Source: a bacterium (lineage in GTDB: Bacteria; UBA8248). From it: 64,000 bases of DNA. Made by a program: the position numbers and the translations under genes. Location: NCBI GenBank assembly GCA_965221165.1, contig CBDCRP010000002.1, positions 320,001 to 384,000 on the forward strand, read 5' to 3'. The notes under the pieces are model-generated. The model saw only the letters and a program-made list of their open reading frames with translations. It was not told where the DNA came from and ran no database searches. Position 1 is the stretch's first letter; the number at the start of each line of letters is the position of its first letter. Below are positions 37,084 through 44,513 of the stretch, piece after piece.

Positions 37084-37356
37084 ATGAGCCGTGGGCTGGT
37101 GATGCACTCGAAAGACAATGTTGCCACCGTGCTGGAGGACATCGCCTCCGAGCAAAATGTGGAAATCGAAGGTGGTGGGGAAATTTTGATGATTTACGCG
37201 ACGGAAGCGATTCCTTTTGGCCACAAAATCGCACTGCGAAAGATATCCTCAAGCGGAAAAGTACTCAAATACGGCGAGGTCATCGGCACCGCCACGCAAA
37301 ACATATCCGCCGGTAGCCACGTTCACGTTCACAACATCAAGAGCACCAGAGGCTAG
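37084..37356 (+). CDS. UxaA/SuyA-like dehydratase small subunit (SAF domain)
   Basis: DNVAT, IPFGHKIAL, KYGEVIG and GSHVHVHN. Confidence 0.88.
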   Translation: MSRGLVMHSKDNVATVLEDIASEQNVEIEGGGEILMIYATEAIPFGHKIALRKISSSGKVLKYGEVIGTATQNISAGSHVHVHNIKSTRG

Positions 37357-37358
37357 GC

Positions 37359-38537
37359 ATGCCCAGAAAAAGGGGCACCCCTACTTTTTGGGGCTACAGA
37401 AGGCCCGAGGGTCCTCCGGGCGGCCGGAATCATCTCGCCATTATCAGCGGGATGGACAATTCAAACCCTATTGTCCGTAGAATCGGCTCACTGGTACGAG
37501 ACGCCACCCCCGTCAACACATCGTTCGGACGCGCTCTGATGGGTGAGGACGAGGAACAGCATTGGCGGGTAATGGGGCACACCGCCGCGCACCCCAACGT
37601 AGGGGCAGCCATTATCGTGAGCTTAGAACCCAAGAGTGCCAACGCCATTGCGGAAGTAGCCACGAGAACATCCCCCTGGATGCCCATAGAGGCTGTGAAC
37701 ATCCAGGAAATCGGGGGCACGCTCAGCACCACCTCTCATGTCGTGGAACTCGCCACAAAACTTTCTGCCCACCTCGCATCCGCCAAGCGGGTTCGCTGTG
37801 AGTTGGGAGAACTCACCATCGGGGCCGAATGCGGGGGTTCTGATACGACCAGCGGCGTCATTTCGAACCCCGTGACGGGAATGGTCGCCGATAAGGTCGT
37901 AGAGGCGGGGGGATCGGTCATCTTCTCCGAGACACTGGAAATTGTGGGGGCCGAGCATCTTCTCGCCCGCCGGGCCGCAGACAGAAAAACGGCGCAGAGA
38001 ATCATCGCTTCCGCCAAAAGCGCCGTTGATTACGCCGAAAGCATCGGCGTCGACTTCATCGGCTCGAATCCGGCGCCCGATAACATCCGGGGCGGTCTTT
38101 CATCCATTGAGGAAAAAAGCCTGGGAGCCATCAAAAAAGCGGGCAGCCATCCCATCGTCGAGGTCGTTGGCGTGGGCGAGCGCCCCTCGAAAAAAGGCAC
38201 CATCTTCGCCGACGCTCCTTGCGCAGGCGTAGAAAACATATCTTCGCTCGCGGCCAGCGGAGCGCAAGCGATTATTTTCTCGACCGGCATCGGCAATCCG
38301 ATCGGTCATCCCATTTCCCCCACCATCAAGGTGACCGGAAATCCCCGAACCGCCCGGACGATGGCCGAGAACATCGATGTGGACATCAGCGGCGTCATGG
38401 AAGGGACGATGCGCATCGATGAAGCGAGGGATTTGCTCGAAAAAGAACTAATCGCGGTGATGAGTGGAAAACTCACGACATCAGAGCTTTTGGGAGAGAC
38501 CGAACTCACGGTCAGCCGGGCCGCATTAAGCCTCTAA
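37359..38537 (+). CDS. UxaA/GarD/SuyB family dehydratase large subunit
   Basis: GYRRPEG..GGRN, HPNVGA, ECGGSD, GGLSSIEEKSLGA and FSTG.G. Confidence 0.88.
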   Translation: MPRKRGTPTFWGYRRPEGPPGGRNHLAIISGMDNSNPIVRRIGSLVRDATPVNTSFGRALMGEDEEQHWRVMGHTAAHPNVGAAIIVSLEPKSANAIAEVATRTSPWMPIEAVNIQEIGGTLSTTSHVVELATKLSAHLASAKRVRCELGELTIGAECGGSDTTSGVISNPVTGMVADKVVEAGGSVIFSETLEIVGAEHLLARRAADRKTAQRIIASAKSAVDYAESIGVDFIGSNPAPDNIRGGLSSIEEKSLGAIKKAGSHPIVEVVGVGERPSKKGTIFADAPCAGVENISSLAASGAQAIIFSTGIGNPIGHPISPTIKVTGNPRTARTMAENIDVDISGVMEGTMRIDEARDLLEKELIAVMSGKLTTSELLGETELTVSRAALSL

Positions 38538-38583: not shown

Positions 38584-39096
38584 TTAAAAACCCATCCCCA
38601 CGATGAGCCGATTCCAGGCGTTGATGAGCGCGATGGCGCCGAGAAGTTCCACTATCTGCGCTTCTGAATAGTGCGCCTTGAGCGCCTCAAAAGTCTCATC
38701 GGAAACACTCACCCCCTGTGTGCTTTCCTCACAAAGGCGCAGCGCCGCTTTTTCTGGATCATTGAAGAGGTCGCTCGAGGAACCCTCTTGCGCGGCTTTT
38801 GTCTTCTCATCACCCACCTTGTGCATCCTTGCCATGTTTGAATGCATGTTCGTGCAAAAATGGCACCCGTTGAGCACCGATGCGCGAATGTTCAGGATTT
38901 CCTTGAAACCTATGTCGATCTCTCCCGGGCCATCCGCCACCGTGGTCAAGCTCAATAAAGATCGCAAGAAATCCGGTTTATGGGCCAAGGCCTTCACCGG
39001 TGGAATCACGACGCCGAATTGTTTTTTCAAATTCTCCATGATGCGTTTTGCGGACGCTTCCGCCTGTTCGGGCTCTAACTGGGAAATCCGTGCCAT
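38584..39096 (-). CDS. AhpD/carboxymuconolactone decarboxylase family peroxidase-like protein
   Basis: RASVLNGCHFCTNMH and INAWNR. Confidence 0.85.
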   Translation of the reverse strand: MARISQLEPEQAEASAKRIMENLKKQFGVVIPPVKALAHKPDFLRSLLSLTTVADGPGEIDIGFKEILNIRASVLNGCHFCTNMHSNMARMHKVGDEKTKAAQEGSSSDLFNDPEKAALRLCEESTQGVSVSDETFEALKAHYSEAQIVELLGAIALINAWNRLIVGMGF

Positions 39097-39330
39097 TCCA
39101 TGCTCCTTAGATTGATTCGTCGGGGTGGATGCTTGCGCACGAGAGATACGCTCATTCCACCGATATTTACGTCACCTCGAGGGTACCGGTCAATGAATAC
39201 TCCAAAACCACCCCGCATACCGCTATAAACTCTAATGAGCGGAAGCACAAAACATCTTCTTTTGTTAAACTATACTCCTGTGAATTTCCTGTTTTCTGCG
39301 GCATTCGCCTTAAACGAATGGATGAACCCT

Positions 39331-40158
39331 ATGGACAAGCAAATTTCTTTACGAGAAGCCGCTTCCCTCATCGAGGATGGAGATGCGATTAGTCCCGGCG
39401 GCACTCTTCTGCACAGGACTCCTGCCGCCCTCGTGCGCGAAATCGCGCGCGCAGGCACCCGGCGTCTAACGCTCATCAAGCCTTCCCCCGGCTATGACGC
39501 CGACCTCCTTTGCGCCGCAGGCGCCGTCGAGAGGGTCATCAGCGGTATCGTCACATTCGAGGCGGAATTCGGATTAGCGCCCCAATATCGAAAGGTGATT
39601 GAGAAAGGGTTGACCGGCCTCACCGAACACGCCTGAGCCAGCGTTCTCGCTGGGCTGCGGGCCGCAGCCTACGGCATCCCTTTTCAGCCCATTCGTGGAT
39701 TCACGGGGAGCGACATTCCGGAGCAAAGCGGTATTTTCACGATTGAAGACCCGTACACGAAAGAGGAACTCTACGCGATTCCCGCCCTCAAACCGGACTG
39801 GGCATTGATTCACGTTCAAAAATCAGACGCGCAGGGAAACGCCCAAATTCTGGGCAACCAGCAGTTTGACGTTGAAATGACGCGCGCGGCGCAAAAAGGG
39901 GTCATTCTCACAACCGAGAAAATCGTTGACCCCGAAGAACTCGCAGCGGAACCCGAGAGAACCACCATACCGGGTTTTCTCGTCAAAGCGGTCGTGGAAA
40001 CGCCGGGAGGGGCGTCTCCTTGCAGTTGCCATCCATACTACGGGGTCGATAAGGATGAAATGGGTCGTTACCTGGCCCTGACCCAAAGCAAGGATGGACT
40101 TGGGGAATATCTTGCCGGTACCGACCAGACACACACGCAAGACGCGTTGAGAAGATAG
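39331..40158 (+). CDS. CoA-transferase family I subunit A (GctA/CatI/IpdA-like) with in-frame UGA, putative Sec102
   Basis: ORFs ending at 39636 and starting at 39805 are one frame with only TGA 39634-39636 between them: TEHA-U-ASVLAGLRAAAYGIPFQPIRGFTGSD...PALKPDWALIHVQKSDAQGN. 275 aa, full family length. Confidence 0.85.
39637..39670 (+). promoter_or_regulatory. Putative bacterial SECIS element
   Basis: Hairpin GGCTGCG-GGC-CGCAGCC (39653-39669) with the loop starting at +24 from the UGA. It is preceded by a second hairpin, CCAGCG-TTCT-CGCTGG. Confidence 0.55.
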
Positions 40159-40160
40159 CG

Positions 40161-40913
40161 ATGGGCAATCGCCTGGCTTCGTTGCCTGAACACGTCATCC
40201 GCGCCGGAAACCAGATGGTCGTCACGCTGTCGCACCTCATCGAAGATGGTGACAAAGTGTTTCACGGGGTCAACTCTCCGCTTCCGATGGTTGCGATTTT
40301 TTTGGCCAAAAAACGACACGCGCCCAACTGCATGCTCATAGAAGTCGCGGGTTCCGTGGACCCGAAACCACGCTTCATGCCGAATAGCACGGCCGACCCC
40401 GAACTCTGCCACGGCGCGGCTTCAATGTTCTACAACCCGGACATGTACGATCTTTTTGCACGTGGAGAGATGGACCTCGCTTTTCTGGGCGCCGCCCAAC
40501 TCGATAAGCAAGGACGAGCCAACATGAGCTATATCGGCGACCCGTTTCACCCGAAAGTCAGGCTCCCCGGTGGAGGGGGAGGCTCCGTCATCATGCCCCA
40601 GGTGAAACGAACGGTTATTTGGCGAACGGTGCACGACAGGCGATTTCTCGTGCCGAGGGTCGATTTTTCGACGCAATCCGGAAATCTGAGCCACGTGGTG
40701 ACATCCATCGCCTTGTTTGAAAAAAAATCGACAGGGCTCGAACTCGCCAGCGTTCACGCGGGTCATTCGATGGATGAAGTGGTCGAGAAAACCGGATTTG
40801 ATTTGCATCGCCCGAACGTTGTCGCGCAAACGCCCCTGCCGAGCGCCGATGAACTAAGCGCTTTGGAGGAACTCGACCCGGATGGCGTGCGCTTTTCAGA
40901 ATTTCGTGTATAA
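40161..40913 (+). CDS. CoA-transferase family I subunit B (GctB/CatJ-like)
   Basis: FLGAAQLDKQGRAN, RLPGGGG, FLVPRVDF and ELASVHAG. Starts 2 nt after the stop of subunit A. Confidence 0.88.
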   Translation: MGNRLASLPEHVIRAGNQMVVTLSHLIEDGDKVFHGVNSPLPMVAIFLAKKRHAPNCMLIEVAGSVDPKPRFMPNSTADPELCHGAASMFYNPDMYDLFARGEMDLAFLGAAQLDKQGRANMSYIGDPFHPKVRLPGGGGGSVIMPQVKRTVIWRTVHDRRFLVPRVDFSTQSGNLSHVVTSIALFEKKSTGLELASVHAGHSMDEVVEKTGFDLHRPNVVAQTPLPSADELSALEELDPDGVRFSEFRV

Positions 40914-40998
40914 ATCACGCTACTTTGATTGAAACGGCAATGATCCCATTGCCACTTGGCGTTGATGGTTTTTGATATGAAGGATATCGGAGAATTTG

Positions 40999-41640
40999 AT
41001 GAGCAGTGAATTGATGAATCGTTTGAAAAACTATTCTGCCTGCCAGGCGGCGGACGCCTTCGATAAATTAAATATCAGAGGCCACATGCCCGACATCATC
41101 CTGTTGTCCCCCGACCCGGATTACCGAATGGTGGGCGAGGCCCATACCGTTCGGATGGTTCCCGCCGGCGGCGGCGCTCTGCCCAAACGCGAGGCCCACC
41201 ATATCGACGCGGCGCCCGGGGGGAGCATCGTCGTCATCAGCATCCCCTCTGGGGTGACGACGGCCAACTGGGGCGGGATGATGAGCACGCGGGCGAAAAT
41301 GATGAACCTGGGCGGAGTCGTCCTGGACGGCAGAGCCAGGGATATCGAAGAACACCGCCAGATGGGATACCCCGTGTTCGCCAGAGGGGTGTCTGTTCAC
41401 GGCAGCGGCGGATATACGGTTCCCATCAGCGTGGGAGAACCGATCAATTGCGGGGGCGTCGCGGTAAGGCAGGGAGACGTCATTCTGGGAGACGTCAACG
41501 GTGTGGTCGTCATCCCCAGGGAAAGGCTCGAGGAAGTCATCGATAAAATGGATGAATTGGCGAAAATTGAAGAAAAAATCATCTCTGAGTTGGAAAAAGG
41601 CGCGAGCATCGGCGAGACGTTCGCCAAGTATCGAGGCTAG
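40999..41640 (+). CDS. RraA-family HMG/CHA aldolase / oxaloacetate decarboxylase-like protein
   Basis: ANWGGMMS, DGRARDIEE and GDVILGDVNGVVVIP. Confidence 0.85.
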   Translation: MSSELMNRLKNYSACQAADAFDKLNIRGHMPDIILLSPDPDYRMVGEAHTVRMVPAGGGALPKREAHHIDAAPGGSIVVISIPSGVTTANWGGMMSTRAKMMNLGGVVLDGRARDIEEHRQMGYPVFARGVSVHGSGGYTVPISVGEPINCGGVAVRQGDVILGDVNGVVVIPRERLEEVIDKMDELAKIEEKIISELEKGASIGETFAKYRG

Positions 41641-42440: not shown

Positions 42441-44513
42441 TTAATTCTTCTGGAGCGCTTTTTCGATAGCACTCAGATCCGTGAGCGGTTCCTTGCAAGT
42501 GAAATTTTCACACAGATACACGGTGGTTCGTCCATCCACCATGGATTTCCCGTCGAGCAGGGGCACTGTGGCATCTGCTTCTTCGCCTGATGATTCCGAC
42601 TTGAAAGCCAAAACTTTGTTGGGAATAAAGCGCGAATCAACGGCCCTGAGAGTTGCGCGCGTATCTTCTGAGTCCCTCTCGCCGACAATCGCCACCTCCA
42701 CCGGGGAGTCGAGACAAAAATCCAACGCCACCAGCATCATATGAAAGGCGGCCGGTGCGCGGTCCAGATATTCACCAAACGAGCGCAACACACCCAAGCC
42801 GCATTCCGCGAATTCAGCCTCGCCCGAGAGTTTCGCCAATTTCAGCAAACCCAGCGCCGCCATGGAGTTCCCGCTCGGAGTGGCGCCATCCTGCGTCATT
42901 TTCTTTCTCACGATGAGTTGTTCATGATCGTGGGCCGTAAAGAAAAATGCGCCGCCCTCGTCATCCCAATATCGCGATATCATCTCCCTCGCCAAATCCG
43001 AGGCCGCGCGAATCCACCGGGGCTCAAAGCTCGCCTCGTATAAATCCACCAGACCCACGATCAGAAAAGCATAATCATCGAGATACGCGTTGAACTTGCT
43101 CACGCCTGCCCGGTGGCTCCTCAACAAGCCCCGCTCATCGCGCATGTTGTTCAAAATAAAATCCGCCGCCTTGCCCGCTTCGTCAATATAGGGGCGGTGC
43201 TCCATAATCCTGCCCGCCAAGGCCATCGAGCCAATCATGAGCCCGTTCCAACTCGTGAGAATTTTATCGTCCAGACCAGGCTTCACGCGCCCTTCCCGCT
43301 CGGCAAAGAGTTTTGCGCGTCCCCTTTGCAAAATCTCAAAGAGCTTTTCTTCGGTGATTCCCACTTCTTTGGCGAAAACGCGGGGTGGTTTCTGGATGAA
43401 CAATGCGGAGGTTTTCCCCTCGAAGTTCCCCTCATCCGTCACACTATAGAACCGGCAGAATATGTCCGCTTCATCCTTCCCGAGAATCTCCTCTATCTGC
43501 TCGGGACGCCATACGAAGAACTTCCCCTCCTCGCCCTCGCTGTCGGCATCCTGCGCAGAATAGAATCCGCCGTCCGGGCTGGTCATTTCACGCAAGACGT
43601 AATCAAGCGTATCCCCCACCACGGAGCGATAAAACGCGCTTCCCGTCGCTTGATAGGCCTCAAGGTACACCCTGGATAAGAGACCATTGTCATACAGCAT
43701 TTTTTCGAAGTGCGGGATGAGCCAGTAAGCATCCACGCTATATCGGTGAAACCCGCCGCCGAGTTGATCATACATCCCGCCCAGCGCCATCCTCTGGAGC
43801 GTTATCTCGATCATCTTCAGCAATTCCTGATCCCGGGATCGTCTCCACTTTCTCAAAAGCAACATCAACGCCATGGAAGGTGGGAATTTTGGAGCTTGCC
43901 CAAAACCACCCCAAGTAGAGTCGAATCGATCCTTCAGTTCTCGCGCGGCTTTGTCGATCCACTCCGCTTTCAAATCACCATTTGTGGATGCAACGACTCC
44001 CATTTGCTGCAAATTCGCCGTTATGCTCTCCGCGTTATCCTGCAAATCCTCTTGTCTCGTCCGATAAACTTCGGCCAGCCTCAAGAGCACGTTCTTGAAG
44101 CCGGGCCTGCCCCATTTGTCATGTGGTGGAAAATATGTACCCCCAAAGAAGGGCCGTAAGTCCGGGAGCAGAAAAACGCTCATGGGCCACCCACCCTGGC
44201 CCGTCATCATCTGCACCGCCTCCATATAGATCCCATCGATATCGGGACGCTCTTCGCGATCCACCTTGATGGAGACGAAATGCTCGTTCAGGATTTTGGC
44301 GATTTCCTCATCCTCGAAACTCTCATGCTCCATCACATGGCACCAGTGGCAAGCGGAGTAGCCGACGGATAAAAAGATGGGCTTGTTTTCTTCTCTCGAT
44401 ATGCGGAGCGCATCCTCGCCCCAGGGATACCACTGCACCGGATTGTATTGATGCTGCAAGAGATAGGGGCTCGTCTCCTGTGCGAGGCGGTTCTGCTGCT
44501 GGGGCTGATTCAT
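42441..44513 (-). CDS. YyaL/SPATA20 family thioredoxin-domain protein
   Basis: [26 protein letters not shown] and HFEKMLYDN. Confidence 0.92.

Follow-up and report, generated by a model that had tools for sequence, protein, structure and literature searches.

Introduction

Glutaconate CoA-transferase (CoA, coenzyme A) of Acidaminococcus fermentans, GctAB (PDB 1poi), is the founding member of a two-subunit fold in which Glu54 of GctB is the catalytic glutamate; this residue is missing in IpdB, which has Gly57 (beta) at the position, and IpdAB does not carry out CoA transfer (available text of PMC5380842). IpdAB is the ring-opening hydrolase of COCHEA-CoA in actinobacterial steroid catabolism (PDB 6co6, 6co9, 6coj, 6con). 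In AibAB, the 3-methylglutaconyl-CoA decarboxylase of Myxococcus xanthus (PDB 5mzw-5n03), the catalytic Glu of GctB is replaced by Cys56 of AibB (PMC7756340). Here, we analyze a gene pair of this fold, termed A and B, in a 64,000-nucleotide stretch of DNA from a bacterium of the lineage UBA8248 (GenBank assembly GCA_965221165.1, contig CBDCRP010000002.1, positions 320,001 to 384,000 of the forward strand). We refer to this whole stretch as the window, and coordinates without a contig name are positions in it. The frame of the A gene is interrupted by one UGA codon, and this apparent stop almost certainly encodes selenocysteine (Sec, U in motifs). An earlier reading of the window that used its letters alone (the sequence-only reading) had already suggested a hidden selenoprotein at this locus.

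From comparisons of sequences and gene contexts, we predict that A is a genuine selenoprotein and that A and B form an enzyme that resembles AibAB and IpdAB, is not a transferase, and uses Sec or cysteine (Cys) for catalysis; we assign this prediction a probability of roughly 0.6.

Results

One reading frame across a UGA codon

Two features of the window define the putative selenoprotein gene:

39331..40158, plus strand: gene for subunit A of a putative heterodimer with the CoA-transferase fold, 275 codons, predicted Sec at codon 102; PF01144 match at residues 6-223
39634..39636, plus strand: UGA codon, almost certainly read as selenocysteine (Sec102), in the motif E-H-A-U; TGA/Cys column compared in 180 loci

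Translation of 39331-40158 on the plus strand gave 275 residues followed by a stop codon, with the TGA at 39634-39636 (codon 102) as the sole internal stop, which bears out the single frame that the sequence-only reading had assembled from two open reading frames (ORFs). In the ORF listing with translation table 11, the subunit A frame is cut into 39235-39636 and 39805-40158. The match to the Pfam family CoA_trans (PF01144), in contrast, runs across the TGA from residue 6 to residue 223 (E 2.4e-22, 79.9 bits at a cut-off of 23). Neither A nor B attained the cut-off of any NCBIfam model (best 39 bits vs 128.5). The start codon ATG at 39331 is consistent with the orthologs, in which the open frame ends a few codons further upstream (open frames of 277-278 aa).

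The interrupted frame is conserved among close relatives. In 41 related genomes, matches with at least 67% identity were found at 23 places in 22 genomes, namely the own genome of the window, 20 of the 22 same-genus genomes, and one same-family genome, and every one of these matches had exactly one TGA, whereas the weaker A paralogs in the 41 genomes had none. The position of the TGA codon was identical in 20 of 20 fetched loci of the same group. Within the genus of the window, dN/dS (the ratio of nonsynonymous to synonymous substitution rates) was estimated from 23 loci, including three from genomes that had been retrieved twice; it amounted to 0.10 before the TGA (codons 2-101) and to 0.085 after it (codons 103-262), with dS near 0.78. 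Values of about 0.1 on either side of the TGA indicate that both halves are translated and constrained. Residues 107, 109-120, 123, 126, and 127, just after the TGA, are invariant in the family alignment, so that the segment already described as the best conserved one is indeed the one behind the UGA codon.

The codon is also covered by contigs from public data. Contigs of four public sequencing runs, two of which (X1 and X2) may be the sample from which the window itself was assembled, span the codon, and none of the differences listed for them falls within 39597-39702; a sense codon, which the sequence-only reading had named as a sign against Sec, was thus not among them. No RNA run was listed for this part of the window. 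As a side aspect, assembly-graph contigs of the runs X1, X2, and X22 start or stop within a few bases of 39639-39652, between the TGA and the hairpin described below, probably because strains converge there on invariant hairpin sequence.

The own genome contains two more A paralogs, both free of internal stops and located outside the window (C2:1220247-1221023 and C3:965498-966256). One of them is 47% identical to A and belongs to a same-genus paralog group with Cys (E-H-A-C-S-T-V), and the other is 35% identical. All three A paralogs are present in nearly every genome of the genus.

Cysteine and selenocysteine at the same codon

If the UGA codon encodes Sec, relatives can be expected to have either TGA or a Cys codon at column 102, as the sequence-only reading had pointed out. 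This is what we found. In 180 DNA loci, the column was TGA in 115 and TGC or TGT in 64, with one locus in which it was uncovered. The scan of one genome per species contributed 80 loci (TGA 43, TGC 31, TGT 6), and a metagenome scan contributed another 80 (TGA 52, TGT 17, TGC 10, uncovered 1), three of which are genomes already in the one-per-species set; as the search patterns were derived partly from suspected Sec forms, the Sec:Cys ratios in these scans are not population estimates. The recurrence of TGA at one and the same codon (115 of 180 related loci) is far beyond chance.

The protein database gave a corresponding picture. Among 120 listed homologs, 87 had Cys in the motif E-[HN]-A-C, 16 more distant ones had E, N, H, A, or S at column 102, and 17 were fragments of 157 to 171 aa that begin just past this column. 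In the tree, the Cys and Sec sequences form one clade that is separated from relatives having E, N, H, or S there (SH-aLRT, the Shimodaira-Hasegawa-like approximate likelihood ratio test, 98). A tree from which rows below 200 aa had been dropped contained 110 rows with Sec and 64 with Cys; at least five changes between Sec and Cys are needed on it, and at least four of them are forced by well-supported branches. The members with UGA belong to Nitrospinota/Tectomicrobia-type bacteria, Burkholderiales, and several metagenomic lineages. Four contigs carrying A of the betaproteobacterial clade (L073, L084, L102, and L119) are titled as metagenome-assembled genomes (MAGs) of Streptomyces, Streptomycetaceae, or Chitinophaga, and these titles look wrong.

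A restart of translation directly behind the TGA would be conceivable where ATG follows, as it does in 28 of 31 betaproteobacterial loci. However, close Cys forms read C-M-T-L-V, indicating that Met103 is ancestral and not a new start. In other lineages, the codon after the TGA is GCC, CCC, ATC, GTG, CTG, or ACC, and in the window the next in-frame start codon is not reached until 39805 (codon 159).

A hairpin behind the UGA codon

The sequence-only reading had noted a GC-rich hairpin with a G-rich loop at +17 to +33 after the TGA, and this element was recovered at exactly this place:

39653..39669, plus strand: bacterial SECIS-like hairpin (SECIS, selenocysteine insertion sequence), stem 39653-39659/39663-39669, loop GGC at 39660-39662

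The hairpin GGCUGCG-GGC-CGCAGCC has 7 bp, a loop of 3 nt, and a free energy of -11.3 kcal/mol, and an extra G-U pair (39652/39670) is possible at its base. Bacterial SECIS elements are defined by a loop of 3-9 nt, a stem of 4-16 bp, a G in the first two loop positions, a distance of 16-37 nt from the UGA, and a free energy of -7.5 kcal/mol or lower (available text of PMC13188914). With its 7 bp, the GGC loop, 23 nt from UGA to loop, and -11.3 kcal/mol, the window hairpin lies within all of these limits. A scan of 39500-39800 against Rfam, which is not expected to cover such an element, gave no match up to E 10.

The nucleotides of the hairpin are constrained beyond the protein sequence. Two Sec clades, each with 31 loci, show hardly any nucleotide variation in codons 108-113 (G-L-R-A-A-A/S): in each clade, all 31 loci have GGG and CTG, and 30-31 of them have CGG or CGT. 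For these residues, 37 Cys forms draw on varied codons (Gly by GGT in 14, GGG in 7, GGC in 6, and GGA in 5; Arg by AGG in 16, CGG in 10, and others in the rest). The median dS of codons 108-113 is 0, compared to 0.78 for the remaining gene. Frozen synonymous sites of the hairpin codons are limited to the Sec clades.

Base pairing is conserved as well. When an 8-bp helix was laid on 59 unique UGA-form sequences, 97.5% of the cells were paired, compared to 35-52% when the 3' partner was slid by 1-3 columns. Three stem pairs show double changes; the pair at alignment columns 22/34 is C-G in 34, A-U in 23, and U-A in one of the sequences, and it is tied to two coupled residue changes, Leu109 to Met and Ala113 to Ser. 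The observed covariation score was not attained by any of 500 shuffles. At least 7 of the 8 stem pairs are formed in 59 of 85 unique TGA sequences; the other 26, which are betaproteobacterial, use a register shifted by one, in which 5-7 pairs of a 7-bp helix are formed. Among the Cys forms, just 3 of 60 unique sequences reach 7 of 8 pairs. In a resampling of synonymous codons, in which locus L065 was counted as Cys through a second, Cys-type site, the free energies in the window's clade gave z values of -0.8 to -4.4, and this was the one clade with a significant effect.

Genes for selenocysteine insertion

The sequence-only reading made Sec dependent on insertion machinery in the genome, and all four components that were looked for are there. 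The own genome (3.69 Mb, 96% complete) contains a tRNA-Sec with the anticodon TCA (75.9 bits at a gathering score of 47), selA (564 bits) and selB (384 bits) side by side, and selD (330 bits; C2:975065-976027, minus strand, outside the window), with all three protein genes above the curated cut-offs. The selD gene has one in-frame TGA and thus encodes a selenoprotein itself, and the same holds for four other TGA-form genomes (G051-G054). An alternative genetic code was set aside, as the A gene terminates in TAG and the genome has a full Sec system.

Among Burkholderiales-type TGA-form genomes, selB was found in 7 of 8 and selA in 2 of 3 tested, and selD with its own TGA was found in 4 of 5 further TGA-form genomes tested; in all three comparisons, the genome without the gene was G043. 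As selA and selB are also present in the Cys-form genomes of Comamonas thiooxydans and Delftia acidovorans, the machinery is required for the UGA form, but its presence does not tell the two forms apart.

Putative catalytic residues of the two subunits

The best solved relatives of A are AibA (5mzw_A, E 1e-31), IpdA (6con_A, 6coj_A, and 6co6_A, E about 1e-28), and GctA (1poi_A, E 4e-28). In the HMMER alignments, the residue opposite Sec102 is Glu in both 6con_A and 6co6_A and Ala in 6coj_A; AibA has Gly there and GctA has Gln. As 6coj_A is otherwise identical to 6co6_A, it represents a Glu-to-Ala variant at the Sec102 column. A natural Cys homolog (P0002) aligned in the same way as A and scored slightly better against GctA than against AibA. 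The sequence-only reading had given a stretch of IpdA and had placed U on its second Glu by an ungapped alignment; the string agrees with 6con_A (areMDEGMLRCGLQAAAQRLPF), and as HMMER finds the identical register, this first alignment was correct. This residue, Glu105 of IpdA, is reported to be the catalytic base of IpdAB (Crowe et al., 2018).

The invariant residues that are specific for the A family are R29, K50, Y55, E77, E99, A101, U/C102, R110, Y114, and Q119, and H100 (96/100) and C61 (98/100) are nearly invariant. C61 (39511-39513) lies in the motif D-L-L-C-A-A-G. IpdA has Cys there as well, and the outgroup has I, V, or L. This cysteine may be buried or may act as a partner thiol, and the latter is thought unlikely because of the residues in the outgroup. 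Neither a UxxC nor a CxxU motif was found near residue 102.

Subunit B is encoded immediately downstream of A:

40161..40913, plus strand: gene for subunit B (250 aa), without the canonical catalytic Glu; PF01144, E 6e-19, 68.7 bits (cut-off 23)

The best solved relative of B is AibB (5n03_D/5mzw_D, E 3e-34), and the B subunit of GctAB matched with E 2e-21. The catalytic column of B was located through the equivalence of AibB Cys56 and GctB Glu54 (PMC7756340), not by direct alignment to GctB. The alignment of B with AibB is ungapped between the motifs HAP and GS.DP, so that Val62 falls on the Cys56 column and Glu61 directly precedes it. In 73 B subunits, the catalytic column is V in 42, I in 30, and L in one, showing that the whole family lacks the canonical CoA-transferase nucleophile. 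The preceding column is N in 62, E in 9, S in one, and a gap in one, and the nine sequences with E are the window's B and 8 close relatives. In the window's clade, this segment reads L-I-E-V-A-G-S. B of the window's clade also has a Cys in the motif E-L-C-H-G.

A neighboring B gene accompanies A in 170 of 179 loci. A distance of about 580 nt separates the two genes in some Burkholderiales loci (about 9 of 30 betaproteobacterial loci); an ORF that fills such a gap (L118:6662-7312, plus strand) has a weak match to the uracil-DNA-glycosylase superfamily (38.8 bits) and overlaps the end of A in another frame.

Genes around the pair

Besides an RlpA gene, the neighbors of A and B in the window are the following:

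37084..37356, plus strand: SAF-domain protein (PF08666)
37359..38537, plus strand: UxaA/galactarate-dehydratase-like protein (PF20629, PF04295)
38584..39096, minus strand: divergent AhpD/CMD-family protein with the CxxC motif C-H-F-C (PF02627)
40996..41640, plus strand: RraA/HMG-aldolase-like protein directly downstream of B (PF03737, E 1e-31)
42441..44513, minus strand: DUF255/thioredoxin-like protein, 690 aa, 1.5 kb downstream (PF03190)

The AhpD-like protein has a weak match to the NCBIfam model 'YciW-related (seleno)protein' (86 bits at a cut-off of 310). Within the window's clade, which comprises the 31 loci L025-L055, its gene occurs in 29 loci, and it occurs in none of the 149 others. 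In the same clade, the RraA-like neighbor was found in 28 loci and the pair of SAF and UxaA-like genes in 22, with short flanks in L025-L044. The DUF255 gene occurs in 9 loci in total, 8 of which are TGA-form loci of the window's clade. Genes of a steroid-catabolic neighborhood (echA20, ipdC, fadA6) were looked for in the window, and none was found.

Other lineages have different neighbors. The 31 loci of the betaproteobacterial Sec clade are accompanied by genes for a TctC receptor (27), a D-2-hydroxyacid dehydrogenase (21), Lyase_1 (20), a family-III CoA-transferase (14), a Zn-type dehydrogenase (14), and a crotonase (10-12). The Cys-form operon of Comamonas thiooxydans comprises a family-III CoA-transferase, a crotonase, A, B, and an acyl-CoA ligase, and genes resembling acyl-CoA ligases lie near 17 of 80 metagenomic loci. 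Enzymes that can make CoA esters are thus on hand in the neighborhood, which fits an A-B pair that transforms acyl-CoA. As just the A-B pair is conserved family-wide, the context names no substrate.

Discussion

The conserved UGA codon, its exchange with Cys codons, and the hairpin behind it concern a fold in which the position of the catalytic residue is known to vary. B lacks a Glu at the position of the covalent intermediate, and the enzyme is therefore most likely not a CoA-transferase; by analogy with the solved relatives, the A-B pair more likely acts on an acyl-CoA or on an acid of a similar kind. What we infer from these comparisons is the insertion of Sec, the formation of the heterodimer, the geometry of the active site, the chemistry, and the substrate, and the following mechanism is proposed on this basis. 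At UGA102, the ribosome would meet the hairpin 16 nt downstream, which would serve as a bacterial SECIS and would recruit SelB carrying Sec-tRNA(Sec), so that the full 275-residue chain would be made. A would then pair with B from the gene immediately downstream to give the usual heterodimer. Sec102 would be the catalytic residue at the place where IpdA uses Glu, and would act as a nucleophile, possibly paired with His100 two residues before it. It would attack a carbon in the bound acyl group (keto, thioester, or Michael acceptor) and form a selenoester or another Se-C adduct for a short time. C-C cleavage, decarboxylation, or isomerization would follow, and the adduct would then be hydrolyzed.

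A selenol has a low pKa, and the selenolate is a strong nucleophile but a poor general acid or base. This nucleophilicity, together with the independent exchange of Cys and Sec in several lineages, favors covalent catalysis. We therefore put forward, tentatively and with less confidence than the prediction of a catalytic Sec or Cys as such, that this is a widespread and so far unlisted selenoenzyme family in which Sec replaces the carboxylate catalyst of the CoA-transferase fold and serves as a covalent, non-redox nucleophile on acyl-CoA.

Several aspects weigh against our interpretation. The Sec:Cys ratios come from patterns partly built on suspected Sec forms, as mentioned above. The window's clade has no nearby gene for forming CoA esters. 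In the betaproteobacterial clade, the region behind the UGA is no more stable than its synonymous resamplings (z about 0), and dinucleotide shuffles of 42-nt stretches gave no significant result (z -1.27, -0.05, and -0.50). In the genome G043, a 7.0-Mb MAG of unknown completeness with a TGA form at locus L094, selA, selB, and selD were not found; this MAG may be incomplete, or the contig may have been wrongly binned. Cys56 of AibB was first called catalytic, yet variants with Ala, Ser, Asn, and Val kept activity (PMC7756340). Glu61 beside the canonical B column in the window's clade leaves some room for a transferase-like role there. Most known selenoproteins are redox enzymes, and the AhpD-like gene with CxxC is a conserved neighbor in this clade.

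These last two aspects lead to the alternatives. Sec102 could be used for redox chemistry by forming a selenenylsulfide or selenenic acid, either as a redox switch or in a reductive cleavage of the type known from glycine or proline reductase, and could be re-reduced by the AhpD-like CxxC protein or by thioredoxin. Most of the 119 listed prokaryotic selenoprotein families have redox motifs (available text of PMC13188914), 29 of 31 loci in the window's clade have the AhpD/CMD gene with CxxC next to the Sec gene, and C61, kept in 98 of 100 members, offers a second family-specific Cys. However, residue 102 is part of neither UxxC nor CxxU, the AhpD-like neighbor is lacking in all 149 loci outside the window's clade, which comprise the other Sec lineages and all Cys forms, and the I, V, or L of the outgroup at position 61 suggests a buried residue and not a partner thiol. 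AibAB and IpdAB, the solved relatives, do not carry out redox chemistry either. We consider a redox role of Sec102 unlikely.

Still less probable is a working CoA-transferase, at least in the window's clade, that would use Glu61 of B, with Sec102 tuning binding or acting as a general acid or base and taking no part in covalent catalysis. Both subunits match PF01144, Glu61 directly precedes the canonical column in B of the window and of 8 close relatives, and IpdA reportedly uses the residue equivalent to Sec102 as a base. The ungapped AibB alignment, anchored by HAP and GS.DP, nevertheless puts Val on the catalytic column, the position of Glu61 is occupied by Asn in 62 of 73 B subunits, and general chemistry makes a selenol a strong nucleophile and a poor choice for a general acid or base.

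Finally, that the TGA is a true stop in a decayed or split gene, possibly with a restart at the next codon, or is read through by an ordinary tRNA, is very improbable and was rejected for the pseudogene or split gene, because the ATG behind the betaproteobacterial TGA, the C-terminal fragments of 157 to 171 aa given by gene callers (17 of 120 listed matches), and the lack of detected Sec genes in G043 stand against purifying selection in both halves, Cys at the same column in 64 loci, and a hairpin that is frozen, with covariation, in TGA forms only.

A catalytic Sec or Cys in an A-B pair that does not transfer CoA is therefore the interpretation that we prefer. Table 1 of a recent survey (PMC13188914, May 2026) contains 119 families or subfamilies of selenoproteins from prokaryotes, and within this table there is no entry for PF01144 or the CoA-transferase fold. 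The main texts of deep-Sep (PMC12013277) and BSepDB (PMC13326102) have no selenoprotein of this fold either, and a full-text literature search, which did not cover supplements and thus leaves an earlier listing possible, returned no paper linking selenocysteine to a protein with the CoA-transferase fold. If our interpretation is correct, it adds a selenoprotein family with more than 100 UGA-bearing members, whose genes are currently fragmented by gene callers, as the truncated database matches show. It would also give the fold a third type of catalytic residue, with Cys or Sec in A as a new solution besides Glu in B and Glu in A (IpdA). Since Sec and Cys forms stand side by side on the tree, the family would be a test case for the use of selenium over sulfur outside classical redox motifs, and, with a covalent non-redox role, it would be one of very few non-redox uses of genetically encoded selenium. 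The Cys-form operons of the cultured bacteria Comamonas thiooxydans and Delftia acidovorans provide a practical route to the substrate.

With respect to known systems, GrdB and PrdB are examples of chemistry with Sec as a nucleophile. Known prokaryotic selenoproteins, such as the formate dehydrogenase alpha subunit and SelD, resemble the window's A in their in-frame UGA, their Cys orthologs, a hairpin 16-37 nt downstream with a G in the loop, and selABCD in the genome (available text of PMC13188914); they differ in having other folds, and the window's A has no UxxC or CxxU redox motif. GctAB is homologous in both subunits, but GctB uses Glu54 for covalent catalysis (available text of PMC5380842), which is missing in the window's B, and GctA has Gln at the Sec102 column.

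IpdAB shares the fold and likewise has a B subunit without the Glu, and the order crotonase-A-B in the Cys-form loci of Comamonas and Delftia echoes echA20-ipdA-ipdB (available text of PMC5380842). In IpdAB, subunit A supplies an active-site residue at exactly the Sec102 column, a Glu instead of Sec or Cys, and the Glu-bearing IpdA-like sequences lie outside the Cys/Sec clade. The similarity to IpdAB is at the level of homology (E about 1e-28), and the window lacks the steroid-catabolic context. AibAB, which is not a selenoprotein, is the best solved relative of both subunits. It has Gly where the window's A has Sec or Cys, and AibB has Cys56 at the former Glu position, where the window's B has Val. 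Nevertheless, the two pairs have in common the two-subunit glutaconate-CoA-transferase fold, the loss of the catalytic Glu in B, in AibAB along with action on an acyl-CoA (PMC7756340), and the E-H of the E-H-x-x motif in subunit A.

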